50,048 nt of DNA from Escherichia phage vB_EcoS_IME347, in sequence record MH051918. One strand, given 5' to 3'. Of this stretch, positions 3,645-37,340 are shown piece by piece. Positions within the stretch are counted from its first letter, which is position 1; the number at the start of each line of letters is the position of its first letter. Made by a program: the position numbers and the translations under genes. The notes below the pieces were generated by a model. That model was not told where the DNA came from. It made no database searches and was given only the letters and a program-made list of their open reading frames with translations.

Positions 3645-3684
3645 CACGAATTGCTAAACCTTCCGCAAGGCCATTTGATATAGT
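3641..3684 (+). promoter_or_regulatory. box/-10 promoter cassette
   Basis: Box ATAGCACGAATTGCTAAA. Inverted repeat GGCCA/TGGCC (3669-3688). 22 nt spacing to TGaTATAGT (hexamer 3679-3684). Confidence 0.65.
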
Positions 3685-3724
3685 GGCCTTATTGAAGCAG
3701 AGCAACCAATCAGAGGCAATGACC

Positions 3725-3937
3725 ATGAAATTTTATCAAACGAGCCGTAACGCTGTTCTGAAATACTGGATTGAAAACGGCGTTGTGATGTGCAGCGGAA
3801 TGGCGGGCGAGCCGTTTAAGTCAGCAATGACCGTCGAAGATGTGGAATGGGCTGTCAGTCGCGGAATGATGGTTCCGGTTCAGAGCAACCCGTTCGACTA
3901 CTGGAATAAACTGAAGTCAGGGGATCTGTTTAAGTGA
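3725..3937 (+). CDS. hypothetical small early protein, 70 aa
   Basis: Track ORF 3683..3937 trimmed, because 3683-3718 is cassette and leader. ATG 3725 lies 8 nt after AGAGG. ATG 3719 is an alternative start. Confidence 0.7.
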   Translation: MKFYQTSRNAVLKYWIENGVVMCSGMAGEPFKSAMTVEDVEWAVSRGMMVPVQSNPFDYWNKLKSGDLFK

Positions 3938-4167
3938 TTATCGTCAACACCGAAACGGGCGAGGTCATGGATAACTGCATCGTTATCGACGACAAGCCCA
4001 AGCCGAAGAGCAAGGCAGGAACTTACGTTAGGACGGTCTGCAAGGCTCCCGGATGCGGGAATATTTACGAGGCGAAAGCCTCAGACCTGAAGCGCGGTTG
4101 GGGATTGACCTGCTGTAAGTCATGCGCAGCCGTGGTTCGCGAACTTAAAAAGAAAGGGCGTTGGTAA
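3934..4167 (+). CDS. small Cys-rich (putative Zn-binding) protein, 77 aa
   Basis: Track ORF. The GTG start overlaps the upstream TGA (GTGA). The motif CKAPGCG...CCKSC suggests a zinc ribbon. Confidence 0.6.
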   Translation: MIIVNTETGEVMDNCIVIDDKPKPKSKAGTYVRTVCKAPGCGNIYEAKASDLKRGWGLTCCKSCAAVVRELKKKGRW

Positions 4168-4355
4168 TGGAGCGTTTAAGCTACTGGCAGATACTGGATA
4201 AGGCCGGGCGACTGCGCGAGCAGCTTCGCGGGCTACCGGATAATGACCGAATGGAAATAATCGGTCGGGCGTTGCTGGATCTGGTTCACGGCGACGTGAC
4301 CTATCACTCATGCGGCAACGCACAATGGAACCTGACCTTTGAGGTGAAGAAATGA
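4167..4355 (+). CDS. hypothetical small protein, 62 aa
   Basis: Track ORF 4161.. trimmed to ATG 4167 (TAATG overlap with the upstream stop). Confidence 0.7.
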   Translation: MERLSYWQILDKAGRLREQLRGLPDNDRMEIIGRALLDLVHGDVTYHSCGNAQWNLTFEVKK

Positions 4356-4654
4356 ACAACTTGCACGAACTGAAGATTTTCCCGCGCCACTTCTACGGCG
4401 TGAAGATGGGGCAGAAGAAAGCAGAATTCAGGGTTGACGATCGCGGATTCAAAACTGGCGACACGCTCCGCCTTCGCGAATGGCACGAGGGCGACTTTAC
4501 CGGGCGGGAAATCAGCGTTGTGGTGACTGACGTAACCGACGTGACCGAGTTCATCAATCGGGCGAACGCCGAACTGTACAACGGGAACCGCTTCGTAATG
4601 CTGTCGTTCTTCGTGGTTCACGCGAGCCTTTGCGATATCCCGTACATCCGATAG
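4352..4654 (+). CDS. ASCH/DUF3850-like protein, 100 aa
   Basis: HELKIFPRHFYGVKMGQKKAEFRVDDRGFKTGDTLRLREW matches my memory of the DUF3850/ASCH N-terminal pattern. ATGA overlap. Its stop is the TAG of box 4651-4668. Confidence 0.65.
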   Translation: MNNLHELKIFPRHFYGVKMGQKKAEFRVDDRGFKTGDTLRLREWHEGDFTGREISVVVTDVTDVTEFINRANAELYNGNRFVMLSFFVVHASLCDIPYIR

Positions 4655-4694
4655 CACGAATTGCTAAAACAATAATCCGGGGCTATGCCATAAT
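4651..4694 (+). promoter_or_regulatory. box/-10 promoter cassette
   Basis: Box ATAGCACGAATTGCTAAA. Inverted repeat GGGGCTAT/ATAGCCCC. 22 nt spacing to TGcCATAAT (hexamer 4689-4694). Confidence 0.65.
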
Positions 4695-4725
4695 AGCCCC
4701 ACACCAAACGAAAGAGGAAGTAGAT

Positions 4726-5106
4726 ATGAAATTCAAATGCACAACCGACACAACGAAGAAATTCACTCCGGGCAAAGTCTACGAGACTTCGGCGAGCAAC
4801 GCACTTCACAACGTGGCTATCCGTGACGACTCCGGGCGGACTCGCGTATTTCGTGTAACTCATAACGGCGAAGGTATTCGCTGGAATGTCGGCGGCAATA
4901 AGTCTGCGGTTATGAAAAAGCTTCATCCTACCTTCCGCATCGACGAGTTGGGTACTGTCCATATCAGCGACGGCGAAGTAACCCGAGTCAAGATCGGCGG
5001 TTGGTGCGAGACTGCGGAATCTAAGCGCGAACGAATCACGAAAATCGCTATCGCGGCAACTCTGGTGCTGGTGAGTGTGGCTGTATTCGTGGCGAATCAC
5101 TTCTGA
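4726..5106 (+). CDS. hypothetical protein with C-terminal TM helix, 126 aa (KxKC family N-terminus)
   Basis: Track ORF 4630.. trimmed to ATG 4726, downstream of cassette 4651-4694. AGAGGAAG RBS. C-terminal helix IAIAATLVLVSVAVFV. Confidence 0.75.
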   Translation: MKFKCTTDTTKKFTPGKVYETSASNALHNVAIRDDSGRTRVFRVTHNGEGIRWNVGGNKSAVMKKLHPTFRIDELGTVHISDGEVTRVKIGGWCETAESKRERITKIAIAATLVLVSVAVFVANHF

Positions 5107-5154
5107 TTTAAAAGGGGAATCTCTCTGAGCGGTTCCCCATAACAAGGAATTCAA

Positions 5155-5280
5155 ATGGTAGACGTGAATCACTGGAATGAACCGCCAAAGCATGACGTTC
5201 TGTTTTGGTTTCTCGGGTTGCTGATAACGCTCGTTATCATCTTGAAAGGCGTGATGGTGGCGGAATGGATTCTGACCTGA
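5155..5280 (+). CDS. micro-ORF, 41 aa single-helix membrane peptide
   Basis: Hand-translated: MVDVNHWNEPPKHDVLFWFLGLLITLVIILKGVMVAEWILT. AAGGA RBS 6 nt upstream. Confidence 0.55.
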   Translation: MVDVNHWNEPPKHDVLFWFLGLLITLVIILKGVMVAEWILT

Positions 5281-5474
5281 TTAACTACGAAGATGCAGCG
5301 CGTGACGCTATCGATGGTATGCTGCCAAATTCGAAGCGTGTGGCTCACTATCGCGGTTTTAAGGGTTCACCTGTTAAACTGTATTGCGAGATTTTGAAGC
5401 TCTCAGAAGTCGATACAGCGCGTTTAGAGGCATACGATTTTAAGCGTTTTTCGATAACCATCGAAACCAAATAG
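5265..5474 (+). CDS. hypothetical small protein, 69 aa
   Basis: Track ORF 5205.. trimmed to ATG 5265 (MDSDLINYED...). Overlaps the end of the micro-ORF by 16 nt. Its stop is the TAG of box 5471-5488. Confidence 0.6.
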   Translation: MDSDLINYEDAARDAIDGMLPNSKRVAHYRGFKGSPVKLYCEILKLSEVDTARLEAYDFKRFSITIETK

Positions 5475-5514
5475 CACGAATTGCTAAAAACCTATCAGGG
5501 GAATGCGCTATGAT
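5471..5514 (+). promoter_or_regulatory. box/-10 promoter cassette
   Basis: Box ATAGCACGAATTGCTAAA. Inverted repeat GGGGAAT/ATTCCCC. 22 nt spacing to TATGAT (5509-5514). Confidence 0.6.
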
Positions 5515-5544
5515 TCCCCTACACCAACAAGCGAGGACGACAAA

Positions 5545-5976
5545 ATGAAACATCTGGTATGCATTGTAGAAGGTTGCGGCCTGGAAGGAATCGGCGGTGA
5601 ACTCGGTCACTACATGATCGCGAAGAATGACCAAGACCGAAGCGGCGACGTTGAGATAACCTCCCGCCACGCACTCCCTTACATCATGGAGACTCTCGGT
5701 GATGGAATGTATCAGGGTTATGGCTCCAGCGCTATTTACAAGCAATACCCGATCCGCAAGCGTCTGGTTCGCGCATTCTTTAAGTACGCGCATCACGATT
5801 GCAAGCTTTCACGCAATGCGGCGAAAAGTTGGGCGCGAGCTATGGCTGACGGATATTTCTTCCGTGATGGTCAGGCGATCAGCGAAATGATTCAGACAAT
5901 CATGATCGACTATGACGGCGATTTCGGTCAAGAGTCATTCGATAGCTACGTTGCCGACGAGATCTCTTACTGGTAA
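5545..5976 (+). CDS. hypothetical early protein, 143 aa
   Basis: Track ORF 5503.. trimmed to ATG 5545, downstream of cassette 5471-5514. Confidence 0.75.
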   Translation: MKHLVCIVEGCGLEGIGGELGHYMIAKNDQDRSGDVEITSRHALPYIMETLGDGMYQGYGSSAIYKQYPIRKRLVRAFFKYAHHDCKLSRNAAKSWARAMADGYFFRDGQAISEMIQTIMIDYDGDFGQESFDSYVADEISYW

Positions 5977-6020
5977 ATAGCACGAATTGCTAAAACTTGC
6001 TCAGGGGCATTTGTTATAGT
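5977..6020 (+). promoter_or_regulatory. box/-10 promoter cassette
   Basis: Box ATAGCACGAATTGCTAAA. Inverted repeat GGGGCA/TGTCCC (one G.T position). 22 nt spacing to TGtTATAGT (hexamer 6015-6020). Confidence 0.65.
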
Positions 6021-6059
6021 GTCCCTCGTTGAGTTAAGCAACCAATAAAGGAAAAAGCG

Positions 6060-6590
6060 ATGATTATCAACGCATACGGTAAAGAGTTTCACACAAACGC
6101 GCCTTCCGGCCTTGTCTGTATTTTCGACTACGACGGGACGCTTTCGGACGGTTCGCACCGACTTCACCTCCTGCCGAAGAAGGATTTACACCTCACTGAA
6201 AGCTGGAGCGAATTCAACCTTGCATCGGTGGACGACGCCCCGATCGAATCAACTATCAAGGTAATGAATGCGATGTATGCAGCCGGGCATTGTGTCATTA
6301 TTTTGACCGGACGCAGCGATGAAGTTGAAGCGGAATCCCGAGTTTGGTTAGATCGTCACGGCGCGAAGTATGACTTCATGATCATGCGTCGCCACGACGA
6401 CAACCGCAAAGACACGGTTATCAAAGAGGAAGTTCTCCGCGAGATCGGGTTGGAGCGAATCCTCGCGGCTTGGGACGATAGCCCTTCAGTTATTCCACAC
6501 TTTAGGAATATTGGAATAACTACATATGCCGTAACTGACTACGGCGACAACGTTCACGATCACCTTAAATCACACGGAGTAGAAAAATAA
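6060..6590 (+). CDS. HAD-superfamily phosphatase (nucleotidase / polynucleotide 3'-phosphatase-like), 176 aa
   Basis: HAD motif I in VCIFDYDGTLSD. ILTGR and a C-terminal WDD are consistent with motifs II-IV. Cassette 5977-6020 upstream. Confidence 0.65.
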   Translation: MIINAYGKEFHTNAPSGLVCIFDYDGTLSDGSHRLHLLPKKDLHLTESWSEFNLASVDDAPIESTIKVMNAMYAAGHCVIILTGRSDEVEAESRVWLDRHGAKYDFMIMRRHDDNRKDTVIKEEVLREIGLERILAAWDDSPSVIPHFRNIGITTYAVTDYGDNVHDHLKSHGVEK

Positions 6591-7174
6591 TGAGCAAAGT
6601 AATCATTCTCAACGCGCCGCCAGCATGTGGCAAAGACACGATAGGTTCAATCATCGCGGATATGAATCAGATTTATGGCGTTCGCATGTTGAGCTTCAAA
6701 GCGCCGATGTTCGAGATCGCCCGAGCTATCCTCGGTGATGCGAACTTTGATTATTTCATGTTCCTTTATAACGATCGGCTCCATAAGGAAAAGCCCGATT
6801 CCATTCTGAACGGTAAAAGCCCGCGCGAGTTCATGATCTGGATTAGCGAGGCAATCATTAAGCCAGAATTCGGCAATGATTATTTCGGGCGTCGAATGGT
6901 TGAGGCTGTCAAGTCAGGCACTGCCCCGGCGATTATCACGGACGGCGGATTCACTGAAGAGACAATCGCACTAATTGAAGCTGGTATTCAGGTTCACGTC
7001 TGCCGACTGCACCGCGACGGATTCACGTTTGAAGGCGACTCGCGAAACTATCTTCACCTGCCTGTGGGCTGGCAAGGCGTAAACGGCTACACCGAAGAAG
7101 ATTTCCAGTTACGTGACGGTGATCCTGATTACACTGCCAGCGTGATTACCGGGAAATACCTGCGTCACTTCTAA
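6590..7174 (+). CDS. P-loop kinase, dNMP-kinase-like, 194 aa
   Basis: Walker A in NAPPACGKDT. The overall pattern (GKDT...ITDGGFTEE...RDGD) recalls T4 gp1-type dNMP kinases. TAATG coupling to the HAD gene. Confidence 0.6.
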   Translation: MSKVIILNAPPACGKDTIGSIIADMNQIYGVRMLSFKAPMFEIARAILGDANFDYFMFLYNDRLHKEKPDSILNGKSPREFMIWISEAIIKPEFGNDYFGRRMVEAVKSGTAPAIITDGGFTEETIALIEAGIQVHVCRLHRDGFTFEGDSRNYLHLPVGWQGVNGYTEEDFQLRDGDPDYTASVITGKYLRHF

Positions 7175-7217
7175 TAGCACGAATTGCTAAAAACTCGGCG
7201 GGGTAAGCTGTTATAGT
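7174..7217 (+). promoter_or_regulatory. box/-10 promoter cassette
   Basis: Box ATAGCACGAATTGCTAAA. Inverted repeat GGGGTAA/TTACCCC. 22 nt spacing to TGtTATAGT (hexamer 7212-7217). Confidence 0.65.
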
Positions 7218-7253
7218 TACCCCATCGAAAACAACCAATCAGAGGAAACGCGA

Positions 7254-7439
7254 ATGATGCAAGTCACCAGCTACACCCAATCGACAGCCGAAGCAATCAG
7301 CGAACTTCGAAAGGTTGCCGACGCGCTGGAGAAAGGCGAGGCTATGCTTTATAGCGGATCAGTTACCAACACCAAGCGTTACGGCGAAGCCCGTGAATAC
7401 GCTATCGAAATCACAGTAGTCACCGATAAGGAGATGTAA
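7254..7439 (+). CDS. hypothetical small early protein, 61 aa
   Basis: Track ORF. Cassette 7174-7217 upstream, with the AACCAATCAGAGG leader. Confidence 0.75.
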   Translation: MMQVTSYTQSTAEAISELRKVADALEKGEAMLYSGSVTNTKRYGEAREYAIEITVVTDKEM

Positions 7440-7441
7440 AA

Positions 7442-7645
7442 ATGAGCAACACAATCAAACTTCGCACGACTCACGCCGATTGCCCTTGGATTACTCCGGG
7501 CAAGATTTACGAGGCCGAATTGGTTGCGAAAGATGGATTTGACGGACTGTATCGGCTGAAGAATCCAGACTTCGGAGAGGTGCTCACTGCAATTGAGAAC
7601 TCCTGTCATTTGGGCGGGGAAAGTTGGGAAGTAGTCACCGAATAG
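7442..7645 (+). CDS. hypothetical small protein, 67 aa (KxKC family-like)
   Basis: Track ORF with an AAGGAG RBS. Contains IKLRTTHADCPWITPGKIYEAE. Its stop is the TAG of box 7642-7659. Confidence 0.75.
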   Translation: MSNTIKLRTTHADCPWITPGKIYEAELVAKDGFDGLYRLKNPDFGEVLTAIENSCHLGGESWEVVTE

Positions 7646-7685
7646 CACGAATTGCTAAAAGTTCCGCAAGGGCATTTGATAGAAT
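7642..7685 (+). promoter_or_regulatory. box/-10 promoter cassette
   Basis: Box ATAGCACGAATTGCTAAA. Inverted repeat GGGCA/TGCCC. 22 nt spacing to TGaTAGAAT (hexamer 7680-7685). Confidence 0.65.
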
Positions 7686-7718
7686 GCCCTTATTGAAACG
7701 AAGCAAAGGAAAATAGAA

Positions 7719-7928
7719 ATGAAACCAGCAATTTTCGAAGCACGTCGCACTTATGGCGCAATCCTCTCCGGGATTCAGTACGAAGTAATGAGCAGTGAGG
7801 ATGGTTACTATATTCAGGTGGACGACGACGGCACTTGCTACGAGGTTATTTTCGACAAGTACGATCCCGATGTTTGCATGTTGAAACATGCGCAGTTAAT
7901 CCGATTCGATCGAGTGGAGGAAGCATAA
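7719..7928 (+). CDS. hypothetical small early protein, 69 aa
   Basis: Track ORF. Cassette 7642-7685 upstream. Confidence 0.75.
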   Translation: MKPAIFEARRTYGAILSGIQYEVMSSEDGYYIQVDDDGTCYEVIFDKYDPDVCMLKHAQLIRFDRVEEA

Positions 7929-8260
7929 TGTTACAGGTCAACCTTTCAGAGAAACAGGCTCGCGAGTTTTACGACTTCTGCTTGCGCGTCGCTGGTGTGC
8001 AGGACAATCCAGTAATCCGGGAAATGTTCAGCGTTATTGAACGCCAGATCCTGCCGGACTCAACCAACAAGGCGGAGTTCGCAGCGTGGAGGAGCAAGCG
8101 AATCACTCCGGCAATTGTCGAAGCGTGGAAGCGCAAGAACGGATCGCCTCGCATCGTGTTTGCGAACGGTGAACCTCGTCGAAATATGGGTTGCGTCGTT
8201 CTCGGTGAATATGCTGATCTGGCAACCGGGCGAATGGTAACGGTGATGCATCATGATTAA
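7928..8260 (+). CDS. hypothetical protein, 110 aa
   Basis: Track ORF 7835.. trimmed to ATG 7928 (TAATG overlap with the upstream stop). Confidence 0.7.
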   Translation: MLQVNLSEKQAREFYDFCLRVAGVQDNPVIREMFSVIERQILPDSTNKAEFAAWRSKRITPAIVEAWKRKNGSPRIVFANGEPRRNMGCVVLGEYADLATGRMVTVMHHD

Positions 8261-8408
8261 GTTTATCCACACTTTCAAAGTGTCGTCCGGCAAAGAGCGG
8301 AAAGAGATCGTGAAGGTTTACGGGAGTCCGGTTAAGGCAAAAGAGCAATTGCGTTTGCTTGGTGGTCGGATTGATGTTGTTAAACATGTTGAATTCTGGA
8401 GTAAGTAA
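8253..8408 (+). CDS. hypothetical small protein, 51 aa
   Basis: Hand-translated: MIKFIHTFKVSSGKERKEIVKVYGSPVKAKEQLRLLGGRIDVVKHVEFWSK. GGTGA RBS 6 nt upstream. Fills an otherwise unexplained gap. Confidence 0.55.
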   Translation: MIKFIHTFKVSSGKERKEIVKVYGSPVKAKEQLRLLGGRIDVVKHVEFWSK

Positions 8409-8409
8409 G

Positions 8410-8640
8410 ATGTTTGGTTTAAGTGAAGCGCATTACAATATTGTCAAACGTGCGGCGCGCGGTCTGAACGACGCAATCAGCGAACTACCGAAGGCCGATC
8501 GAAAGAAGGAGCAAATCGTCATTAAGGTGATCGATAAGCATTACGAACCAGTTGCGACACTGATTAACCGGATGCGCTTCGTTTGGGTGGCGGGCTATCT
8601 CGCCGGGCGCGTAGGAAACAAAAATGGGGACTACGAATAA
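8410..8640 (+). CDS. hypothetical small protein, 76 aa
   Basis: Track ORF 8359.. trimmed to ATG 8410. TGGAG lies 8 nt upstream. Confidence 0.7.
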   Translation: MFGLSEAHYNIVKRAARGLNDAISELPKADRKKEQIVIKVIDKHYEPVATLINRMRFVWVAGYLAGRVGNKNGDYE

Positions 8641-8834
8641 TGATCGGGAAAGTGGATTGGGTGAAGTGCGAACGGGCATATCACGAAAGCGGGTTCACGG
8701 CGGGTTGCGAATATCAGGTTCTGAAGTTCGATTCCCGGCTCGGAGTCATGACGATCCAGAATGAGCGCGGCGAGCGTTGCTTGGTGAGTCACCCTCACGA
8801 CATAAATTACGGAGAGTTTCGAATTATCGATTGA
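8640..8834 (+). CDS. hypothetical small protein, 64 aa (KxKC family-like)
   Basis: Track ORF 8583.. trimmed to ATG 8640 (TAATG overlap). Contains VDWVKCERAYHESGFTAGCEYQV. Confidence 0.7.
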   Translation: MIGKVDWVKCERAYHESGFTAGCEYQVLKFDSRLGVMTIQNERGERCLVSHPHDINYGEFRIID

Positions 8835-8860
8835 CTCGAATCTCTGAACGGTGATATCAT
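8831..8860 (+). promoter_or_regulatory. sigma70-like promoter TTGACT-18-TGaTATCAT
   Basis: TTGACT at 8831-8836, an 18-nt spacer, and an extended -10 with TATCAT at 8855-8860. Confidence 0.55.
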
Positions 8861-8990
8861 TCTTTCCGTAGACAAAAGAGGCGCTTAGGCGCAACGCGCA
8901 TCGCGATAGATGCATAACCTTTGTAGTATCGGGGCGTAGTGGTAAGCCCGCCGCAGACCCGTAAGCGGCTCAAATTCACAGGAGCTTTAC

Positions 8991-9152
8991 ATGAAGCAAG
9001 ATATCAAAATCGAAATCAAAGTAACCCGAAACGGCGAAATCACTCGCTACAAAAAATCACTCAAGCCGGGCGAGGCTGTAATCGGTCGAATCGCTGGTGT
9101 GATGCTGAAGGCGCAGGAAGATGAAGCGATTCACGGTAAAGCTAACGATTAA
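8991..9152 (+). CDS. hypothetical small protein, 53 aa
   Basis: Hand-translated (MKQDIKIEIKVTRNGEITRYKK...). AGGAG lies 7 nt upstream. First ORF after promoter 8831-8860. Confidence 0.55.
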   Translation: MKQDIKIEIKVTRNGEITRYKKSLKPGEAVIGRIAGVMLKAQEDEAIHGKAND

Positions 9153-9306
9153 GCGAATGGGGCGCAGGTGCTCAACCTGCCGCCAAAACTTCGAAACCGA
9201 AGTAAAAGCGAGTTCCGCAGAAGAAGCCGTAGCAAAGGCTAAACTCCAGTCAGGAGCCAATGCGGACACTCACCAGTTTTCAATCAACCTTGTAAGGGAA
9301 ATTTAA
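9121..9306 (+). CDS. hypothetical small protein, 61 aa (start uncertain)
   Basis: Track ORF. Overlaps the 8991 ORF by 32 nt. The alternative ATG 9157 would remove the overlap. Confidence 0.55.
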   Translation: MKRFTVKLTIKRMGRRCSTCRQNFETEVKASSAEEAVAKAKLQSGANADTHQFSINLVREI

Positions 9307-9308
9307 CC

Positions 9309-9533
9309 ATGACAACTTTTTTATTCATTCTCGCCTTTATCGCTGTTTTCGTGCTTGGTATCGCGTCTGCTCTTCTGCTTATCGCCTTTATCGTGAAGCA
9401 CGACGCCGAAACTGACGAAGGCGTGTGGCTGACGTACAATCGCAGTGAGGATGTTTGGAAGTGCTTCGGTGATTTGCCAGCAGTCTACGCGAAGGCTCAA
9501 ACTCACAAAAAGCCGATACAAAAAATCTGCTAA
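9309..9533 (+). CDS. small membrane protein, 74 aa
   Basis: Track ORF. N-terminal helix FLFILAFIAVFVLGIASALLLIAFIV. Followed by terminator 9538-9561. Confidence 0.75.
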   Translation: MTTFLFILAFIAVFVLGIASALLLIAFIVKHDAETDEGVWLTYNRSEDVWKCFGDLPAVYAKAQTHKKPIQKIC

Positions 9534-9537
9534 AACT

Positions 9538-9561
9538 AAACCCGCCTCGGCGGGTTTTTTT
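9538..9561 (+). terminator. intrinsic terminator (end of left-arm early block)
   Basis: Stem CCCGC-ctcg-GCGGG (9541-9554) followed by T7. Confidence 0.8.
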
Positions 9562-9580
9562 ACGTCTGGAGTATGATAAA

Positions 9581-9598
9581 ATAGCACGAAATGTTAAA
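9581..9598 (+). promoter_or_regulatory. box copy in the terS leader
   Basis: ATAGCACGAAATGTTAAA lies between TGaTAAAAT (9574-9582) and the GGAGGA RBS. No -10 lies 22 nt downstream. Confidence 0.45.
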
Positions 9599-9614
9599 CA
9601 TCGGAGGACGTTTT

Positions 9615-10172: not shown

Positions 10173-11744
10173 ATGTTAGTGTGGGAAGAACTGGACGCAA
10201 CGCAAAAGCTTGCGATCAAGAAAATGAGCGAGGCAAGTTTCGAAAAGATGATTCGGATCTGGTTTCAGCTTATTCAGGCGCAGCAATTTAAACCTAACTG
10301 GCATCACCTTTACCTTTGTCACGAGGTGGAGGAAATCATCGCCGGGCGGCGCGGGAATACGATCTTCAACGTAACGCCGGGTTCCGGTAAAACCGAAGTG
10401 TTTTCGATTCACCTCCCTGTGTACGCGATGCTTCGCGTGAACAAGATCCGAAACCTGAACGTGTCGTTTGCCGATAGTCTCGTCAAGCGTAACAGCAAGC
10501 GAGTGCGAGAAATCATCGCATCGAAAGAGTTCCAAGAGTTATGGCCTTGCGGGTTCGCCACGTCCAAAGATGATGAAATTCAGGTTCTCAATCAGGCTGG
10601 CAAGGTGTGGTTCGAACTGATATCCAAGGCGGCTGGCGGACAAATTACGGGTTCTCGTGGTGGCTACATGAGCGACGGATTCTCCGGGATGGTGATGCTT
10701 GACGATATCGACAAGCCGGACGATATGTTTTCCAAGGTCAAGCGAGAGCGTACACACACGCTCCTGAAGAATACAATCCGAAGCCGAAGGATGCACAACG
10801 AAACGCCGATTATCGCCATACAGCAGCGCCTACACGCGCAGGATTCGACGTGGTTCATGATGTCGGGCGGAATGGGGATAGACTTCGAACAGATCTCAAT
10901 CCCGGCTCTCGTTACTGAGGAATACGGGCAATCGCTTCCTGAATGGTTACGCCCTCACTTCGAGAAGGATGTTCTCTCGTCCGAGTATGTGATGATAGAC
11001 GGAGTGAAGCATTACAGCTTCTGGCCTGACAAGGAATCTGTTCACGATCTGATTGCATTGCGAGAGGCAGACCAGTACACGTTCGACTCGCAGTACCAGC
11101 AGCGCCCGATCGCGCTTGGTGGCTCCGTGTTTAACTCGGAGTGGTGGACGTACTACGGAAACAGCCTTGAGGCTGACGAACCAGATCCCGGCAAGTTTGA
11201 CTATCGTTTCATTACGGCTGATACCGCTCAGAAAACAGGTGAGCTTAATGACTACACTGTATTCTGTCTTTGGGGTAAGAAAAACGATAAGGTGTACTTT
11301 ATCGACGGGGTTCGCGGAAAGTGGAAAGCGCCGGAAATGGAGACTCAGTTTAAATCATTCGTTAGCACGGCATGGCGTCACAATAAGTCGATGGGCGTAC
11401 TCAGAAAAATCTACGTGGAGGATAAAGCGAGCGGGACGGGCTTGATTCAGAATCTGGAGAAGAAAACTCCCGTCCCGATCACGCCATTGCAGCGAAATAA
11501 GGATAAGGTTACTCGCGCGATGGATGCGCAGCCAGTAATCAAGGCCGGGCGCGTTGTTCTGCCTGAATCGCATCCTATGCTTTCCGAAATCATCACGGAG
11601 CATAGCGCATTCACATACGACGACACGCACCCTCACGACGATATTGTCGATAACTTCATGGATGCGGCAAACATCGAACTTCTGACGATAGACGATCCTA
11701 TCGAACGAATGAAACGCCTTGCGGGAATGGCAAAGCGCAAGTAA
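10173..11744 (+). CDS. terL: terminase large subunit, 523 aa
   Basis: Walker A in VTPGSGKTE, Walker B-like MVMLDDID, and a C-terminal nuclease-type acidic region. Sits upstream of the portal gene. Confidence 0.9.
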   Translation: MLVWEELDATQKLAIKKMSEASFEKMIRIWFQLIQAQQFKPNWHHLYLCHEVEEIIAGRRGNTIFNVTPGSGKTEVFSIHLPVYAMLRVNKIRNLNVSFADSLVKRNSKRVREIIASKEFQELWPCGFATSKDDEIQVLNQAGKVWFELISKAAGGQITGSRGGYMSDGFSGMVMLDDIDKPDDMFSKVKRERTHTLLKNTIRSRRMHNETPIIAIQQRLHAQDSTWFMMSGGMGIDFEQISIPALVTEEYGQSLPEWLRPHFEKDVLSSEYVMIDGVKHYSFWPDKESVHDLIALREADQYTFDSQYQQRPIALGGSVFNSEWWTYYGNSLEADEPDPGKFDYRFITADTAQKTGELNDYTVFCLWGKKNDKVYFIDGVRGKWKAPEMETQFKSFVSTAWRHNKSMGVLRKIYVEDKASGTGLIQNLEKKTPVPITPLQRNKDKVTRAMDAQPVIKAGRVVLPESHPMLSEIITEHSAFTYDDTHPHDDIVDNFMDAANIELLTIDDPIERMKRLAGMAKRK

Positions 11745-11758
11745 ACGAGGTATAATCA

Positions 11759-11784
11759 GGGCTGGATTTTTCCAGCCCTTTTTT
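11759..11784 (+). terminator. intrinsic terminator after terL
   Basis: GGGCTGGA-tttt-TCCAGCCC followed by T6, then ATTGGAGGTA. Confidence 0.8.
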
Positions 11785-11797
11785 ATTGGAGGTAGTA

Positions 11798-14987: not shown

Positions 14988-15464
14988 ATGGCAATTGCAG
15001 CAAGCTATCAGAAAGATATGTCTATCGCCGTTCCGGGTATGGTGGCAGACACCTCCCGTTACAACATCGACGGCGCTTGCGTACTGAGCGGTGACGTTGA
15101 TATCCTCGTCGGCGTTGCGGTTCAGGTTGACAACGTTCAGGCCGTTGACGGTCACAAAGTCATGAAGCCTATGGCATCCGGCGGCAAGGCTTATGGTGTG
15201 GCGATTCGCTCCCACTTCCAGACTAAAGGCAAAGATGGTCAGATGTACTATGAAGCGGGCGGCGGCATTAACGTAATGACCTCCGGGCGCGTTTGGGTTA
15301 TCTCCAAAGATTCCACCGCTCCGGCGTTTGGTGAAACTGTCAACTTTGACGTTGACGGACAGCAGAAAGCAGACGGCGCGATCGAAACCGCATGGACTTA
15401 TGCGGGCGGCTTCACTACCTATCAGGATTTGAAGCTGGTTGAAATCCAATTGCATCAACTGTAA
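14988..15464 (+). CDS. head decoration/cement-like protein, paralog A, 158 aa
   Basis: Track ORF with an AAGGAG RBS. Shares YNIDGACV, GVAVQV, GRVWV, (A/S)PAFGE and AGGF with the next gene. Lies between the scaffold and capsid genes. Confidence 0.6.
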   Translation: MAIAASYQKDMSIAVPGMVADTSRYNIDGACVLSGDVDILVGVAVQVDNVQAVDGHKVMKPMASGGKAYGVAIRSHFQTKGKDGQMYYEAGGGINVMTSGRVWVISKDSTAPAFGETVNFDVDGQQKADGAIETAWTYAGGFTTYQDLKLVEIQLHQL

Positions 15465-15479
15465 TAAGTAGCTAATATA

Positions 15480-15507
15480 GGGATTACCTTTTGGTAGTCC
15501 CTTTTTT
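15480..15507 (+). terminator. intrinsic terminator after decoration paralog A
   Basis: GGGATTACC-tttt-GGTAGTCCC (one mismatch) followed by T6, then ATTGGAGGTA. Confidence 0.7.
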
Positions 15508-15522
15508 ATTGGAGGTAATAAA

Positions 15523-16017
15523 ATGTCTGATTATGGTAATTTGTCTTTGGGGGTTAGCTGTCCCGGCCTCCTGTCCGATACGTCGGACTATAATATCGAC
15601 GGCGCTTGTGTGGCTCGTGGGGAAATTCCTTTTGGTGTCGCTGTTCAGGTTGTCGAGATCGTGGATGGTGTCAAGGTTGTCTCCGCGCTGAGTGACGGCA
15701 AGCCGTATGGTGTGTCGATGCGATCGCAATACGAAAACTTGTCGGGCGTGGTTCAGGACGGCGAACCTGTGAGCGTTATCTCTCATGGTCGAGTTTGGGT
15801 TCGCACCTCTCTGGAGGATTCGCCCGCTTTCGGTGAGAAGTTATCCTTCGAATCTGGCGGAGAAGTATCTGAGGCCGGGGAGGCTGGCTGGCCTTTCGCT
15901 GGAGGTTTCGTTAAGTTTGGTGAGGGCTGGATTGTAGAGGTTCAGGTTTTGCAAAACCGATACTACATCCCACCTGAGCCGGAACCTGAACCAGAACAAG
16001 ACCCGGAAGAGCCGTAG
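15523..16017 (+). CDS. head decoration/cement-like protein, paralog B with acidic PE-rich tail, 164 aa
   Basis: Track ORF, paralog of 14988-15464. Its C-terminus PPEPEPEPEQDPEEP ends at TAG 16015-16017, and the same composition continues in frame to 16080. Confidence 0.65.
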   Translation: MSDYGNLSLGVSCPGLLSDTSDYNIDGACVARGEIPFGVAVQVVEIVDGVKVVSALSDGKPYGVSMRSQYENLSGVVQDGEPVSVISHGRVWVRTSLEDSPAFGEKLSFESGGEVSEAGEAGWPFAGGFVKFGEGWIVEVQVLQNRYYIPPEPEPEPEQDPEEP

Positions 16018-16080
16018 CCGGAAGATCCTGAACCGGAAGAGGGAGGCGAAACTGACCCGGAAGAAGGTTCAGAGGGTTAA
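16018..16080 (+). other. in-frame post-TAG extension (20 codons, PEDPEPEEGGETDPEEGSEG, then TAA)
   Basis: Direct translation in the frame of 15523-16017. CCGGAAGA units recur on both sides of the TAG. Confidence 0.6.
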
Positions 16081-16092
16081 CACAAAAACAGT

Positions 16093-16120
16093 TTGACGCT
16101 TTAACAAAAAGTGCTATCAT
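16093..16120 (+). promoter_or_regulatory. sigma70-like promoter TTGACG-16-TGcTATCAT (capsid gene)
   Basis: TTGACG at 16093-16098 and TATCAT at 16115-16120. The predicted +1 (~16127) lies inside the 5' arm of terminator 16121-16148. Confidence 0.55.
16100..16117 (-). promoter_or_regulatory. inverted box copy forming the spacer and TGn of the capsid promoter
   Basis: The plus strand reads TTTAACAAAAAGTGCTAT, embedded in TTGACG-16-TATCAT. Confidence 0.5.
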
Positions 16121-16148
16121 AAAGCCGTTATCACTTAACGGCTTTTTT
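16121..16148 (+). terminator. intrinsic terminator immediately upstream of the capsid gene
   Basis: AGCCGTTA-tcact-TAACGGCT followed by T6. Confidence 0.75.
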
Positions 16149-16167
16149 CACAAAAGAGGATGTAAAC

Positions 16168-17145
16168 ATGACTAAGAAATATGACGAATTCGAAGCAACC
16201 GTAGTTGGCTCCCACCTGAAGATGCGCGGTGAAAAAGCCGATGCTGATACTCTCGGTATCTGGACTGCTCAGGAGCTTCACAAGCTGAAAAATCAGTCTT
16301 ACGAAAAAGACTATCCGGCAGGTTCCGCTCTGCGAGTATTCCCGGTAACTAACGATCTGTCCCCGGTTGATAAGACCTTCGAATATCAGACCTTTGATAA
16401 GGTTGGTATCGCGCAGATTATCACCGACTACACCGATGATCTTCCTCTGGTTGATGCTATGTCGTCCAGCGAGTTTGGCAAAGTTTTCCGCCTCGGTAAC
16501 GCATACCTGATTTCAATTGACGAAATCAAAGCAGGTCAAGCAACTGGCAAGTCGCTGTCTAATCGCAAGGTTAACGCCGCGCAACTGGCACACGATCAGT
16601 TAGTCAACCGCCTGGTGTTTAAAGGTTCTGTTCCTCACAAAATTGTGAGCGTGTTTAATCACCCGAACATTACCAAGATCACCTCCAAAGGCTGGACGTC
16701 AACCGCTGGTAGCGTAGTAACCAAAAACCCGGAAACCGCAGAAGAAGAACTGACGGCGGCTATTGAGTCGATCCAGACTCTGACGATGGGCGCACACCGT
16801 GCAACGCACATCCTGATCCCGCCGTCAATGCGCAAGGTTCTGACTGTTCGTATGCCTGACTCCACTGAAAGCTATCTGGATTACTTCATGAAGCAGAACG
16901 GCGGAATCACCATCGAATCAATCGCGGAACTGGAGGATATCGACGGCGCTGGCACGAAGGGTGCTCTGGTTTACGAGTACGACCCGATGAATATGTCCAT
17001 CGAAATTCCTGAAGCGTTCAACATGCTTCCTGCGCAGCCGAAAGACCTGCACTTCAAAGTGCCTTGCACCTCTAAGTGTACTGGTCTTACGATTTACCGC
17101 CCACTAACGATTGTCCTGATTACAGGACTTGCAGTAAGCGAGTAA
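16168..17145 (+). CDS. major capsid protein, 325 aa
   Basis: Track ORF. Bracketed by terminators and has its own promoter. Size and position fit, and the sequence looks DUF2184-type. Confidence 0.8.
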   Translation: MTKKYDEFEATVVGSHLKMRGEKADADTLGIWTAQELHKLKNQSYEKDYPAGSALRVFPVTNDLSPVDKTFEYQTFDKVGIAQIITDYTDDLPLVDAMSSSEFGKVFRLGNAYLISIDEIKAGQATGKSLSNRKVNAAQLAHDQLVNRLVFKGSVPHKIVSVFNHPNITKITSKGWTSTAGSVVTKNPETAEEELTAAIESIQTLTMGAHRATHILIPPSMRKVLTVRMPDSTESYLDYFMKQNGGITIESIAELEDIDGAGTKGALVYEYDPMNMSIEIPEAFNMLPAQPKDLHFKVPCTSKCTGLTIYRPLTIVLITGLAVSE

Positions 17146-17158
17146 ATTGATTACTATA

Positions 17159-17186
17159 GGGACTCATTAATTTGAGTCCCTTTTTT
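17159..17186 (+). terminator. intrinsic terminator after the capsid gene
   Basis: GGGACTCA-ttaatt-TGAGTCCC followed by T6. Confidence 0.8.
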
Positions 17187-17205: not shown

Positions 17206-17499
17206 ATGGCTAAAGAACAAAAAACCAAAGCAACCGAAGAGCGCGTAGCGATTGTGAACGTCGGAACGGCGCTGATTTTCATCAACGGTGAAAAGCTGAT
17301 GCCGGATCAGGAAATTGAAATTGATGTGGCTCAACTGAAAACCTCCGGCGTTGAATACCTGTTCGGGCAGGGCGTGGTTATTGTCAAAGATAACTCCGCA
17401 TTAACCAATGAAGTGCGAGCACGAATTGAAGCGCGTCGCAAAGAAGATCCTACCGCTGGCAAGTCCCAAAAAGAACTTGAGGACGGCGGCGAGTTCTAA
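17206..17499 (+). CDS. hypothetical head-associated protein, 97 aa
   Basis: Track ORF with a CTGGAGAAA RBS after terminator 17159-17186. Confidence 0.7.
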   Translation: MAKEQKTKATEERVAIVNVGTALIFINGEKLMPDQEIEIDVAQLKTSGVEYLFGQGVVIVKDNSALTNEVRARIEARRKEDPTAGKSQKELEDGGEF

Positions 17500-19843: not shown

Positions 19844-19867
19844 GGGGGCGCTTGCGCTCCCTTTTTT
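19844..19867 (+). terminator. intrinsic terminator after the tail tube gene
   Basis: GGGGGCG-cttg-CGCTCCC (one G.U pair) followed by T6. Confidence 0.8.
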
Positions 19868-19871
19868 GTTT

Positions 19872-19880
19872 CTGTAGAAT
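19872..19880 (+). promoter_or_regulatory. CTGTAGAAT -10-like nonamer after a terminator
   Basis: Lies 5 nt after the T-run of terminator 19844-19867. The motif recurs at 23924, 26057, 41647 and 37379 (minus strand). Confidence 0.4.
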
Positions 19881-19907: not shown

Positions 19908-19925
19908 TTTAACAAAAAGTGCTAT
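19908..19925 (-). promoter_or_regulatory. inverted box copy upstream of the tail chaperone gene
   Basis: The plus strand reads TTTAACAAAAAGTGCTAT followed by CAC, giving TGcTATCAC. Lies 24 nt before ATG 19949. Confidence 0.45.
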
Positions 19926-20623: not shown

Positions 20624-23533
20624 ATGGTCGATAAAGTAGCGGGCTTGTCGCTTGATGTTGACGTGTCGCAAGTCGATCGCGCGGTGAAGTCCCTGAATCA
20701 ATTCGCCACGGCGAACGATAAGGCTGCGGACGCAACCCACGAGTTTTTGAACCAGACCGAGATTGCGAAGCAGAAGGCGAAGGCACACGCAAGCGAGCTT
20801 GCGAAACAGTCTCGCGAGTATGCATCAATCCAAAAGGCGATTGACCCGACGATCAGCAAAATGAACCAGCTTCGTGATACAGCGAAGTCCCTTGATTCTC
20901 TGTGGCAAAAGGGATTCATCCCGGACGATGAATTTTTCCGGCTGAGTGCAATCCTTGAGCAGCAGGAAAACGCGCTGAATAAGAATAAGCTTGCACTGAC
21001 TGAAGAGGGCAGGGCGGCGATCGAAGAGGGGAAGGCTAAAGACCGTGCGGCGGCGGCTGGCGACAAGTTCATAAAACAGTTGCAGGAGCAGGCTGCGGCG
21101 GCTGGCAAAACCTCAACGGAAATGCTGGAGCTAAAAGCGGCTCAGTTGGGCGTGTCCCAACAAGCAGCGCCATTCATCGCGCAGCTTAACGCTCAGTCAA
21201 AAGGGATGAAGCTTGCCGGGTTGTCTGCGGGGCAATACTCGCAAGCGATGCGAATGCTTCCGGCTCAGATTACGGACGTGGTGACTTCCCTTGCATCCGG
21301 TATGCCTGTTTGGTTGGTTGCAATCCAGCAGGGCGGGCAGATTAAGGACTCATTCGGCGGGATCGGTAATACGTTCAAGGTTCTGACTTCGTACATTACA
21401 CCGATGCGAATTGCTCTTGCTGGCACGGTTGGAGTTCTGCTCGGACTCGGTAAAGCGGCGTGGGATTCCTACGAGGCGAACAAGGCTCTGTCCGATTCGC
21501 TTATCCTGACTGGTAATTACGCCGGGAAAACTACAGGGGAGATTCGGGAAATGTCTGAGGCGATCGCGGACGGCACTAGCGCTACCGTTTCAACCGTTCG
21601 ACAGATTGCAACCGATTTGGTTAAGTCCGGGAAGTACACTGGCGATCAGATTAAAATCATCACGGCGGCAACTGCTCAGTGGTCTACGGTTACGGGTGAA
21701 TCCGCTGAGGAAGTGACGGGCTATTTCAAGAAGATTGCAGATGATCCGGTTCAAGGTCTTGCGAAGCTTAACGAACAGTTTAACTTCCTTGAAAAAGGTC
21801 AGTTAACCTACATTTCCGGTCTTGAAAAGACTCAAGGGACGACGGCGGCTGTTACTGCGGCGACGAAGCTTTTCGCTGACACGATGGAAACTCGGTTACA
21901 GAAGATTGCGGACTCCGCAACGCCTCTTGAAAAGATGTGGGCGAACATCAAGAAGTGGGCTTCCGACGCTTGGGGTTGGGTTGGAGATCACACTCGTGGC
22001 GCGTTGAACTTGATCATTGACGTTGTAGCCGGGACGGTTGAGCAGGTTCAGCTAATCCTGAACAAAGGCGACATTGTAATCGGTCAATTCATCGTTAGCG
22101 CTACGAAGGCGATGCAGAAAATTCCGGGGATGGGTGATGTTGGCAACGACATTATCAAGAATCAGGAAAAAGTGATTAACGACGCGATCGCCAACAACAA
22201 GGAGCTTGAGAAGTCCATCATTGAGCGTGACAAGCGGATTCGTCAAGGCGAAATGGGTTACATCAACTCCGAAGGGAAGGAAAACTTAGGCAAGAAGTAC
22301 GCCGATGAAACCAAGGAAGCCGTAGAGAAAGAGGCCGAAGCGCTCAAGAAGAAAGGGAAGGCTCAGAAGGTCATTGTAGATCAGGGCGACAAGATCACGG
22401 AGCAGTACAACGCCGATATCATCGCGCTACAGTCTCAGTTGGAAGTCCTGAAAGAGCACAAGACGATTAACGACTCAATTAGCCAGCAGCGCAAGACGCT
22501 ATGGAACGAGCAAGCGAAAGTTAAGGTTCTGGAGGAGGCTGCAACTCAGCGTGTACTGACGAAGGAAGAGAAATCCTATCTCGCCAACAAGGATAAAATC
22601 CTCGCGCTGGCTGAACAGAAAGCAATTCTCGGTGATCAGATTGTTGCTCAGCAGAAGCTTAACGCCCTGCAAGACGAGTCAACAAAGTACGTACTGAAGA
22701 TGGAGGCGCAGTCGAAATCAATTCGCGAAACGTCCGGCCTCGGTGATATCGCTGCGAAGCGACAAAGGGAACTGGATGAACTGAAGGCGTCATGGCAGGG
22801 CAAAGGCGGAAGTGAAGATGATCCGGCATTGCAGAAGATGATTGAAGCCCGGCAGAAAGTCTACGCCGATGAAGATGCGCAGCGTCAAGATTGGCTGGCT
22901 GGAGCGGAGGCGGCGTTTAACAACTACGGCGAAGCGGCAACCAACATGTATGACAATGTTGGTCAGGTTGCAAGCGAGGCGTTAAACGGAATGTCCACGA
23001 TGATGGCAGATTTTCTCATGACCGGGAAGGCCAACTTCGGAGACTTCGCGAAGAGCATTATCAGCATGATCATTAACATGATCACGAAGATGGTTCTGTT
23101 TAACTCAATCGCTGGCCTGATGGGTGGAAATACGTGGAGTTTTGCAGGTGGCATGGGTGGATTCGCTAACGGCGGTTACACTGGCGACGGCGGGAAGTAC
23201 GAACCTAAAGGCGTTGTTCACGGCGGTGAATTCGTATTCACCAAAGAGGCGACGAGCCGGATCGGGGTTGGAAACCTGACTAAGCTGATGCGCGGCTACG
23301 CTAACGGCGGCTCGGTTGGTAATGCCTCTCGCGGCACGGGGTTAACCCTTTCATCTTCATCCGGTCAGGGAACCTACGTCGATGTTAGCGGGATGAAGGT
23401 TGACGTTAATAACGGAAATGACCCTCGCGGCATGGAGCATGGGATCCGAATGATTTTCAACGAAATGATTAACGACGCTTGCTCTCAGGGTGGTAAAGTG
23501 TACAACTATATCAATGAGAAAACGGGAGGTTAA
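20624..23533 (+). CDS. tail tape measure protein, 969 aa
   Basis: Longest helical, Ala/Lys/Gln-rich ORF after the chaperone pair. Hydrophobic segment near the C-terminus, and Gly-rich end. Confidence 0.9.
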   Translation: MVDKVAGLSLDVDVSQVDRAVKSLNQFATANDKAADATHEFLNQTEIAKQKAKAHASELAKQSREYASIQKAIDPTISKMNQLRDTAKSLDSLWQKGFIPDDEFFRLSAILEQQENALNKNKLALTEEGRAAIEEGKAKDRAAAAGDKFIKQLQEQAAAAGKTSTEMLELKAAQLGVSQQAAPFIAQLNAQSKGMKLAGLSAGQYSQAMRMLPAQITDVVTSLASGMPVWLVAIQQGGQIKDSFGGIGNTFKVLTSYITPMRIALAGTVGVLLGLGKAAWDSYEANKALSDSLILTGNYAGKTTGEIREMSEAIADGTSATVSTVRQIATDLVKSGKYTGDQIKIITAATAQWSTVTGESAEEVTGYFKKIADDPVQGLAKLNEQFNFLEKGQLTYISGLEKTQGTTAAVTAATKLFADTMETRLQKIADSATPLEKMWANIKKWASDAWGWVGDHTRGALNLIIDVVAGTVEQVQLILNKGDIVIGQFIVSATKAMQKIPGMGDVGNDIIKNQEKVINDAIANNKELEKSIIERDKRIRQGEMGYINSEGKENLGKKYADETKEAVEKEAEALKKKGKAQKVIVDQGDKITEQYNADIIALQSQLEVLKEHKTINDSISQQRKTLWNEQAKVKVLEEAATQRVLTKEEKSYLANKDKILALAEQKAILGDQIVAQQKLNALQDESTKYVLKMEAQSKSIRETSGLGDIAAKRQRELDELKASWQGKGGSEDDPALQKMIEARQKVYADEDAQRQDWLAGAEAAFNNYGEAATNMYDNVGQVASEALNGMSTMMADFLMTGKANFGDFAKSIISMIINMITKMVLFNSIAGLMGGNTWSFAGGMGGFANGGYTGDGGKYEPKGVVHGGEFVFTKEATSRIGVGNLTKLMRGYANGGSVGNASRGTGLTLSSSSGQGTYVDVSGMKVDVNNGNDPRGMEHGIRMIFNEMINDACSQGGKVYNYINEKTGG

Positions 23534-24715: not shown

Positions 24716-25425
24716 TTCAGGCAAAGATTAAGATCGAAATCATGAGACACGCGCGGGATGTTTATCCCGCTGAATGCTGCGGCATTGTCACGCAAAAGAG
24801 CCGGGTTCAGCGTTATCACCGGATCGATAACGTCCACAAGGAGCCGGAGAAGCATTTCGAAATGGATGCACAACAATATGCCGATGCTCTGGAGGCTGGC
24901 GAACTGGTGAGTGTGGTTCACTCCCATACGGGCGATGGAGCTACTACTCTTCCTTCGGCGCATGATACTTGTGTCTGTAACGAAATGGGCGTGATGTGGA
25001 CAATCGTTAGTTTGCCGGAGGGTGATATGAGATTCGTTGAGCCGTCGCAGCTTCCTCTGATTGGTCGCCCTTGGTCGCTCGGTTCGTTCGATTGTTGGGG
25101 GCTTGTCATGTCGTGGCATAAGGAGCATGGGATCGAGCTTAACGATTTCCGCAAGCCTTACGAGTGGTGGAAGCCGGAATTCGGGGAGAATCTTTATCAG
25201 GAAAACTATCTGATCGAGGGATTCGTTCCAACCAATCAGGAGCCGAAGCCGGGAGACATGATTATCATGCAATTGCAGTCTCCAGTTTGGAACCACGCCG
25301 GAATCTACGTCGGAGACAATCAAATTCTACATCACGCATTCGGCAAGTTATCGCGCAACGATATCTATTCTGGATGGTATCGGGATCATACCGTAATGGT
25401 GTGCAGACATAAGGAGCTTAAATAA
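24712..25425 (+). CDS. tail tip protein K-like (MPN/JAB + NlpC/P60), 237 aa
   Basis: AECCGIV...HSH MPN-like N-terminal half and FDCWGLV...H NlpC/P60-like C-terminal half. ATGA overlap with the L-like gene. Confidence 0.8.
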   Translation: MIQAKIKIEIMRHARDVYPAECCGIVTQKSRVQRYHRIDNVHKEPEKHFEMDAQQYADALEAGELVSVVHSHTGDGATTLPSAHDTCVCNEMGVMWTIVSLPEGDMRFVEPSQLPLIGRPWSLGSFDCWGLVMSWHKEHGIELNDFRKPYEWWKPEFGENLYQENYLIEGFVPTNQEPKPGDMIIMQLQSPVWNHAGIYVGDNQILHHAFGKLSRNDIYSGWYRDHTVMVCRHKELK

Positions 25426-37327: not shown

Positions 37328-37340
37328 AATAAATTCCTCA

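Follow-up and report, generated by a model that had tools for sequence, protein, structure and literature searches.

In Escherichia phage vB_EcoS_IME347, the region in front of the major capsid gene seems to hold an overlapping promoter-terminator module, in which the capsid promoter would escape the terminator hairpin of the upstream cement gene; we put the probability of this reading at about two in three. All coordinates refer to the window, which is the whole analysed stretch of 50,048 nt (record MH051918). In the proposed mechanism, a near-consensus host sigma-70 promoter (A tract, TTGACG, 16 nt, TGn, TATCAT) would drive the capsid gene, and its -10 element would end exactly where the stem of the cement gene's putative intrinsic terminator starts. 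Polymerase arriving from upstream would transcribe the whole hairpin together with U6, terminating at about 16146-16149, whereas polymerase from the capsid promoter would start within the 5' arm, at G16127, about 7 nt past the -10. The RNA made from the capsid promoter would then be devoid of the stem base, its 4-bp remnant would lie apart from the U tract, and transcription would read through into the capsid gene without termination. The head module as a whole would be a chain of short units, with each promoter nested in the terminator of the preceding unit. A first-pass annotation had already proposed that the start site of this promoter lies inside the stem of the upstream terminator, and this idea is supported by the conservation of the elements, by covariation in the hairpin, by a fixed geometry of 0-2 nt, by an alternative order in Klebsiella phages, and by recurrence of the arrangement, all of which can be read directly from the genomes. 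From these features we infer the start position, the termination of upstream transcripts, and the read-through of the promoter's own transcripts.

The promoter and the hairpin in front of the capsid gene

The closest relatives of the region are SRT8 and IME-JL8, with about 81% identity, and the family is that of the T1-like phages, the Drexlerviridae. The major capsid gene (16168-17145, plus strand) encodes 325 aa that match phrog_264, major head protein, with an E-value of 3e-100, and the records of relatives give the same name to its orthologue. Its ATG at 16168 is preceded by the Shine-Dalgarno sequence AGAGGA (16155-16160, plus strand). Upstream of it lie two paralogous cement/decoration ORFs (14988-15464 and 15523-16017; PF22758), and in the relatives the cement/decoration gene ends at a conserved TAA (16078-16080, plus strand), where the family-wide nucleotide conservation begins. 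In vB_EcoS_IME347, an in-frame TAG at 16015-16017 closes the second cement ORF 20 codons before this TAA. The TAG falls within a Pro/Glu-rich repeat (PEPEPEPEQDPEEP*), 20 further in-frame codons of similar Pro/Glu-rich character continue from the TAG to the TAA (16015-16080), and the second cement protein has 164 aa compared with 255-260 aa in the T1 and SRT8 homologues. The short ORF could be either a truncation remnant or one part of a gene with a read-through extension. An Rfam scan of the whole window returned no family at the gathering threshold.

The promoter named in the first-pass annotation, TTGACG-16-TGcTATCAT at 16093-16120 with a hairpin directly after it, could be read with all its elements in place. 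Both sequence reading and a promoter scan gave the -35 hexamer TTGACG at 16093-16098 (plus strand), followed by a 16-nt spacer, and the extended -10 at 16112-16120 (TG at 16112-16113, c, TATCAT at 16115-16120; plus strand), and hexamers, spacer, and TG are those of the sigma-70 extended -10 class. At about -43 to -39, an A5 tract (16084-16088, plus strand) that is found as AAAAA(A/C) in nearly all relatives resembles the proximal UP-element subsite, judging from the known consensus. In the promoter scan, the capsid promoter reached 10 of 12 hexamer matches plus the TG; the scan yielded 10 sites in 12 kb when 10.4 were expected, and the pattern match alone is thus at chance level. It is the conservation and the covariation described below, and not the pattern match, that mark the element as more than a chance occurrence.

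A query of 291 nt around the site matched 288 phage records, 229 of which covered most of it, and at least 229 phage records, including T1, carry the element in conserved form. The alignments mostly begin at 16078, the stop codon of the upstream gene. For a closer comparison, we used about 46 distinct upstream regions from Drexlerviridae relatives in IMG/VR. The TTG of the -35 was kept in 46 of 46 (TTGACG, TTGCAC, TTGAAC, TTGACC, TTGCTG, or TTGATT), and the TAT..T of the -10 was kept in nearly all of them (TATCAT, TATTAT, TATATT, TATGAT, or TATTCT), with GATATT in one relative (L062) as the single exception. The spacing between the two hexamers was 16-17 nt throughout, and the remaining hexamer positions vary. 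Conservation is hence selective for the positions that sigma contacts (TTG and TA...T, in essentially all 46 relatives), and the capsid promoter appears to be under sigma-70-type selection.

The spacer of the promoter is filled by a copy of a 21-nt repeat (tgATAGCACTTTTTGTTAAAG, 16099-16119) that lies on the minus strand and is thus reversed relative to transcription. It could be argued that there is no functional promoter here, that the hexamers are by-products of this reversed repeat beside a terminator, and that the capsid gene is read through from upstream. The chance-level pattern match would fit such a view, as would the facts that the TGcTAT of the extended -10 comes from the conserved ATAGCAC of the repeat and that the strict criteria of the TLS study yielded no promoter call at the orthologous site (PMC11447400). 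We find it hardly credible, as only the capsid copy among 31 repeat copies of the genome combines a T at -7 with TTG at the -35 position, as both features are present in essentially all 46 relatives, including a clade with a different repeat subtype, with an altered -10 only in L062, and as a strong terminator in front of the most abundant structural gene would be senseless if there were no promoter. The capsid promoter thus appears to be a true promoter that is built on a reversed repeat. The GenBank record of SA30RD annotates a promoter (6666-6693) and, adjacent to it, a terminator (6696-6726) at the orthologous site, and the record of Sip annotates a terminator only.

Directly behind the -10 lies a hairpin with the appearance of an intrinsic terminator (16121-16148, plus strand; 5' arm 16121-16130, loop 16131-16135, 3' arm 16136-16145, T6 16143-16148). 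Its core stem is formed by AGCCGTTA (16123-16130) and its partner TAACGGCT (16136-16143) around the loop TCACT, and A-T pairs lengthen this stem to AAAGCCGTTA/TAACGGCTTT (16121-16145). The first-pass annotation had described a hairpin at 16123-16143 that is followed by T6; the hairpin is there, but the T6 overlaps with it, as its first T closes the stem, and five T remain beyond. The hairpin was absent from the list of the built-in terminator scan, presumably because the A-T extension of the stem consumes the T run. Our own finder, which trims outer A-T pairs, detected a 7-bp core anchored by G/C pairs (16124-16142, -9.0 kcal/mol) and the T6 after it, and the full 10-bp stem has -12.5 kcal/mol. 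The sequence thus has what characterizes an intrinsic terminator: a 7-bp core (10 bp with A-U pairs) of -9.0 to -12.5 kcal/mol, a 5-nt loop, and T6. Its location is also that of a terminator, on the coding strand 40 nt past the conserved TAA, and the end of the T6 is 20 nt away from the capsid start.

The stem varies among relatives (AGCCGTTA, AGCCGTGA, GGCCGTTA, GGCTGTTA, GGGCTGT, and GGGCGTTA), with the pairing retained. Covariation was assessed in an alignment of 22 sequences with slid partners as a control and with 500 shuffles. Double changes were found in six of the ten hairpin pairs, 90.5% of the hairpin cells were paired in comparison to 22-61% with slid partners, and none of the 500 shuffles reached the observed covariation score. 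The hairpin upstream of the capsid gene therefore has the signature expected of a selected structure. In the IMG/VR relative L036, the stem is retained with one bulged C, and the L038 hairpin has two mismatches (5' arm GGGGCGTTA, 3' arm TAACAGCC) and looks like a recombinant of two stem types. The RefSeq record of T1 (NC_005833; L066 15049-15140) contains about 24 annotated terminators and none at this hairpin, although T1 has the stem and T6 at this site.

What the hairpin belongs to can be judged from Klebsiella T1-like phages, such as KingDDD, whose capsid protein is 59% identical to that of vB_EcoS_IME347. In this clade, the stop codon is followed by GGGGCTTCGGCCCC-T5 and then by TTGACC-16-TGcTATTCT with the repeat in the spacer, and there is no hairpin after the -10. 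As the terminator here precedes the promoter, this order argues that the hairpin of vB_EcoS_IME347 is the terminator of the upstream cement gene rather than part of the capsid leader. A terminator between the cement and capsid genes thus appears to be a conserved requirement, and in the clade of vB_EcoS_IME347, in which it lies after the -10, capsid expression would need transcripts from the promoter that evade it.

Many relatives have a degenerate T run after the hairpin (CCTTTAAGG, CCCCTTAAAAGG), and L046 has none (CCCCAAAAAGG); the stem is nonetheless kept, so the conserved function of the hairpin may be other than efficient termination. It is in this context that another explanation has to be weighed, namely that the promoter is real but that the hairpin is conserved for RNA processing or stability and not for termination, as a 3'-protecting stem or an RNase site of the cement mRNA, with termination in this phage being a secondary consequence of the T6. 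The maintenance of the stem by covariation agrees with this explanation, as do the range of the T run from six T to none among relatives and the about 25 other promoters that lie in or against GC-rich hairpins, most of which lack a sense-strand T run. The hairpin has canonical features of an intrinsic terminator in vB_EcoS_IME347, T1, and SRT8, however, and in the Klebsiella clade this intergenic region has GGGGCTTCGGCCCC-T5 in its place, which is unambiguously a terminator. In addition, two independent annotations call a terminator, T35 of TLS (PMC11447400) and the SA30RD and Sip records. We therefore regard a primary role in RNA processing or stability as unlikely, albeit not far-fetched. 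The first-pass annotation had also spoken of the capsid gene as an insulated unit. This is too strong for the family, since the T run is degenerate in relatives or absent, as in L046, while the stem is kept. Insulation across the family is probably partial, and the hairpin may also stabilize the upstream mRNA.

Predicted transcription start and the 5' arm of the hairpin

Sigma-70 holoenzyme starts transcription 6-9 nt past the -10, usually 7-8 nt, and prefers a purine after a pyrimidine. By this geometry, and in view of the energies of truncated RNAs, the predicted start of the capsid transcript is G16127 (plus strand), the 7th nt past the -10 with a C before it, which is inside the 5' arm. 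The gap between the -10 and the stem is 0 nt when the A-U pairs are counted and 3 nt up to the first G:C pair, and a perfect stem could be detected in 31 distinct variants, in all of which it begins 0-2 nt past the end of the -10. Because of this fixed distance, a start 6-9 nt past the -10 removes the base of the stem, which is the part that must form beside the U tract to cause termination. As the stem base is lost, transcripts from the capsid promoter would carry no working terminator, whereas upstream transcripts would contain the whole structure. The calculated energies of RNAs that extend to the T run change accordingly with the start position, from -12.5 kcal/mol (position 1) to -10.2 (position 4), -3.6 (position 6), -1.6 (position 7), and 0 (position 8). 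Across the 31 variants, full stems ranged from -9.5 to -14.5 kcal/mol and RNAs starting at position 7 from 0 to -5.3 kcal/mol. The latter value stems from T1-type sequences, in which a start at position 7 leaves a residual 5-bp CCGUG/CACGG stem near U6, and some self-attenuation is possible in these.

In principle, the hairpin could also be a promoter-proximal attenuator of the capsid transcripts, in the style of ampC or of lambda PR'/tR' with Q, and a phage factor at the palindrome in the spacer would then permit late read-through. What speaks for such an arrangement is that the near-invariant palindromic repeat between -35 and -10 matches the position of the Q element in lambda, that the late region is rich in terminators, and that the residual 5-bp stem of the T1-type sequences lies beside U6. 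Terminators in 5'-UTRs just after promoters are also common in other phages (PMC10914365). An attenuator of this kind would have to be transcribed completely from its own promoter, however, and here the core stem starts only 4 nt past the -10; by this geometric argument, RNA from a sigma-70 start could not contain the 5' arm when the stem lies 0-2 nt past the -10, as in the 31 variants. Moreover, promoter and repeat are shared by the Klebsiella clade, which has no hairpin downstream of them, and the only annotated regulator has a weak Cro-like HTH match. Attenuation as the main role of the hairpin is thus quite improbable, and we favor a start inside the 5' arm. The literature that we searched contained in-silico predictions for T1-like phages and no mapping of transcript ends.

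Recurrence of the arrangement and the 21-nt repeat

The second terminator that the first-pass annotation had placed at the end of the capsid unit (17159-17186) is present, with a stem at 17158-17181 and T6 at 17181-17186. It is part of a second unit (17129-17186, plus strand), which consists of TTGCAG (17129-17134), 17 nt, TACTAT (17152-17157), the stem-loop, and the T6, and in which the promoter of the gene that follows (17206-17499) overlaps the capsid terminator. With this second module of like design at the end of the capsid gene, the head module can be viewed as a chain of units. A further unit upstream of the second cement gene (15450-15508, plus strand) comprises TTGCAT, 17 nt, TAATAT (15473-15478), a stem-loop (15479-15502), and a T run, and 20 of 35 distinct relatives have a -10-like hexamer directly against this terminator. 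The unit upstream of the portal gene (11727-11785, plus strand) comprises ATGGCA, 18 nt, TATAAT (11751-11756), a stem-loop (11758-11779), and a T run; T1 carries TATAAT-t-AGGGCTG at 10545, with a matching pattern also at 14235 and 16107.

By our own criteria, the window contains 11 plus-strand terminators. With a threshold of at least 4 of 6 matches, a -10 hexamer that ends 1-3 nt ahead of the first G:C pair is present at four of these 11, which are all four of the head module (TATAAT before the stem starting at 11759, TAATAT at 15480, TATCAT at 16124, and TACTAT at 17159). The background frequency of such hexamers is 2.4% per site, which gives a P of about 1e-4 for 4 of 11. The terminator downstream of the capsid gene has an abutting TAnnAT hexamer in 36 of 36 distinct relatives, the Klebsiella clade included, and 16-18 nt (mostly 17) upstream of it, within the end of the capsid CDS, there is a -35-like hexamer, which is TTGnnn in most of these relatives and TCGCCA in the Klebsiella clade. 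As a control, the next terminator downstream had a -10 hexamer in none of 25 relatives. The hexamer thus depends on the position and does not accompany these terminators in general. We also considered that A/U-rich hexamers before terminators could be RNase E-type sites and rejected this, since the invariant T, A, A, and T at hexamer positions 1, 2, 5, and 6, with a -35-like hexamer some 17 nt in front of them, are what characterizes a -10 element, and since the next terminator lacked the hexamer in all 25 relatives.

The primase cassette (36840-36900, minus strand) was said to follow the same logic, and its layout is as described, a variant of the design with the -10 in the hairpin loop. A repeat copy (36900-36883) is followed after 22 nt by the -10-like TAAACT (36862-36857), which forms the loop of a hairpin (stem 36873-36863/36856-36846) with T6 (36845-36840) after it, and the predicted start A36850 lies within the 3' arm, upstream of the primase CDS (36824-35880). 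Terminators of the tail module overlap with promoters in the opposite manner: the -35 TTGCGC lies in the hairpin loop (19844-19880), and the -10 (TAGAAT or TATAAT) follows 17 nt past TTGCGC, just beyond the T run. T1 (L066) has this reversed overlap in its tail module as well (22793-22840 and 24972-25010).

A 21-nt direct repeat was reported for TLS, where its function was left open between stoperator, enhancer, and UP element and where no promoters were found beside it (PMC11447400). The reversed copy DR7 of TLS directly precedes the terminator T35, and with the strict criteria used no promoter was called there (PMC11447400 Table S1). The copy in the capsid promoter (16119-16099, minus strand) corresponds to DR7, and both are reversed relative to the flanking genes, whereas the other copies are not. 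It matches the family repeat aaATAGCACnnnTTGnTAAAA, and its palindromic core TAACAAAAAGTGCTA lies at 16102-16116 with one core mismatch. The window has 24 matches to the core TAGCA-N5-TGCTA, compared with 0.65 expected, for example at 970-984, 4652-4666, 7175-7189, and 47669-47683, and the genome contains about 31 full-length copies. Usually the repeat is oriented along transcription about 76 nt before a start codon, from which the reversed capsid copy departs. In the usual orientation, a -10 hexamer follows 21-23 nt (mostly exactly 22) past TTGnTA at about 25 sites including the primase cassette. It often carries TGn and sits within a GC-rich hairpin, in the loop or the 3' arm, or just behind one. 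These hexamers lie about 30 nt before a Shine-Dalgarno sequence and look like early and middle phage promoters. Between such hairpins and the Shine-Dalgarno sequence, the leader motif (A/C)ATCGAAACGAA or ACACCAAACGAA recurs (970-9600 and 47100-49900).

Several other roles of the repeat were considered and rejected. A minus-strand promoter at the capsid copy is not plausible, as there is no minus-strand -10 hexamer at the expected spacing, 22 nt downstream of the repeat. TTGnTA does not fit a -35, as the -10 hexamers are 22 nt away and not 16-18, nor does the repeat fit an RNA hairpin, as the common TAACA/TGCTA subtype breaks the pairing without compensation. A second reversed copy of the late region, at 19908-19925, has TGaTACAGT on the minus strand at the 22-nt spacing, which suggests a possible antisense promoter aimed into the terminator at 19844-19861.

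As the conservation of the spacer exceeds the needs of sigma-70, a second factor probably acts on the capsid promoter by binding to the near-invariant repeat. We know of no convincing match of the palindrome to the sites of CRP, Fis, LexA, IHF, FNR, or other E. coli regulators. Phrog_2856, 'transcriptional regulator', is the match for the gene at 36884-37327 (minus strand), whose HTH hit is Cro-like and weak. The putative promoter of this regulator (TTGCGT, 17 nt, TATAAT, minus strand) has its -10 region in common, face to face, with a plus-strand helicase promoter, and a repeat copy (37341-37358) lies between the two promoters, downstream of the predicted start of the regulator (region 36884-37420), an arrangement that suggests autoregulation and makes the regulator a candidate for binding the repeat. 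It may also bind the spacer of the capsid promoter and would then time this promoter or modify the starting polymerase. More broadly, the about 30 promoters of the genome whose -10 is interleaved with hairpins could allow polymerase released at a terminator to be handed to the overlapping next promoter. That the spacer repeat is an operator or loading site for a phage protein within such a wider relay of polymerase from terminators to promoters is a tentative and rather doubtful extension of the module.

Relation to known systems and relevance for T1-like phages

In the PR'-QBE-tR' region of lambda, a protein-binding element lies between the -35 and -10 of the late promoter, with a terminator after it and a late region that contains terminators. 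In vB_EcoS_IME347, by comparison, the terminator lies only 0-2 nt past the -10, its 5' arm would not be transcribed completely from the own promoter, no Q homologue was noticed, and no antitermination would be needed for the capsid hairpin. For frd/ampC of E. coli, the ampC promoter is said to have been placed by Grundstrom and Jaurin in 1982 upstream of the frd terminator, with one hairpin serving two units. There, the ampC start reportedly lies before the whole hairpin and ampC's own transcripts are attenuated, whereas here the predicted start inside the stem would permit escape.

The overlap of promoter and terminator with a terminator stem immediately after the promoter has been described for pA/TH of phiX174. 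In the phiX174 RefSeq record, the hexamer TTTCAT is followed with a gap of 0 nt by GCCTCCAA-ATC-TTGGAGGC-T6-ATG, and the start site, 3962, is the 7th nt past the hexamer, inside the 5' arm. This geometry of -10-like hexamer, stem, T6, and start of the next gene is identical to that of the capsid site, with the difference that the start within the 5' arm is annotated for phiX174 and predicted here. phiX174 is an unrelated ssDNA microvirus with a single site of this kind, a weak promoter, and a replication gene, whereas vB_EcoS_IME347 is a dsDNA siphovirus that uses the design at least four times in its head module. Its capsid site combines a near-consensus promoter, the most abundant structural gene, and a family repeat with a palindromic core in the spacer. 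Overlaps in chromosomal operons, in which a terminator physically overlaps with the next promoter, are described as conserved in the long term and as linking the expression of neighbors (PMC6735719). The consequence proposed there is promoter exclusion by the polymerase load on the terminator, and the likeness to the capsid site concerns the overlap.

phiX174 already exemplifies the design principle, and what is gained conceptually is therefore modest. T1-like phages are abundant, are common contaminants in laboratories and fermentations, and are increasingly considered as therapeutic candidates, and papers on their genomes give widely differing promoter counts, from 3 to 20 per genome. For hundreds of Drexlerviridae genomes, most of the promoters and transcription units could be placed in annotation by two rules, the first being that promoters of the head module are nested in the preceding terminator and the second that early and middle promoters lie inside hairpins 21-23 nt, mostly exactly 22 nt, past the 21-nt repeat. 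For engineers, these rules would indicate which short intergenic segments, if split, lose both a terminator and a promoter.
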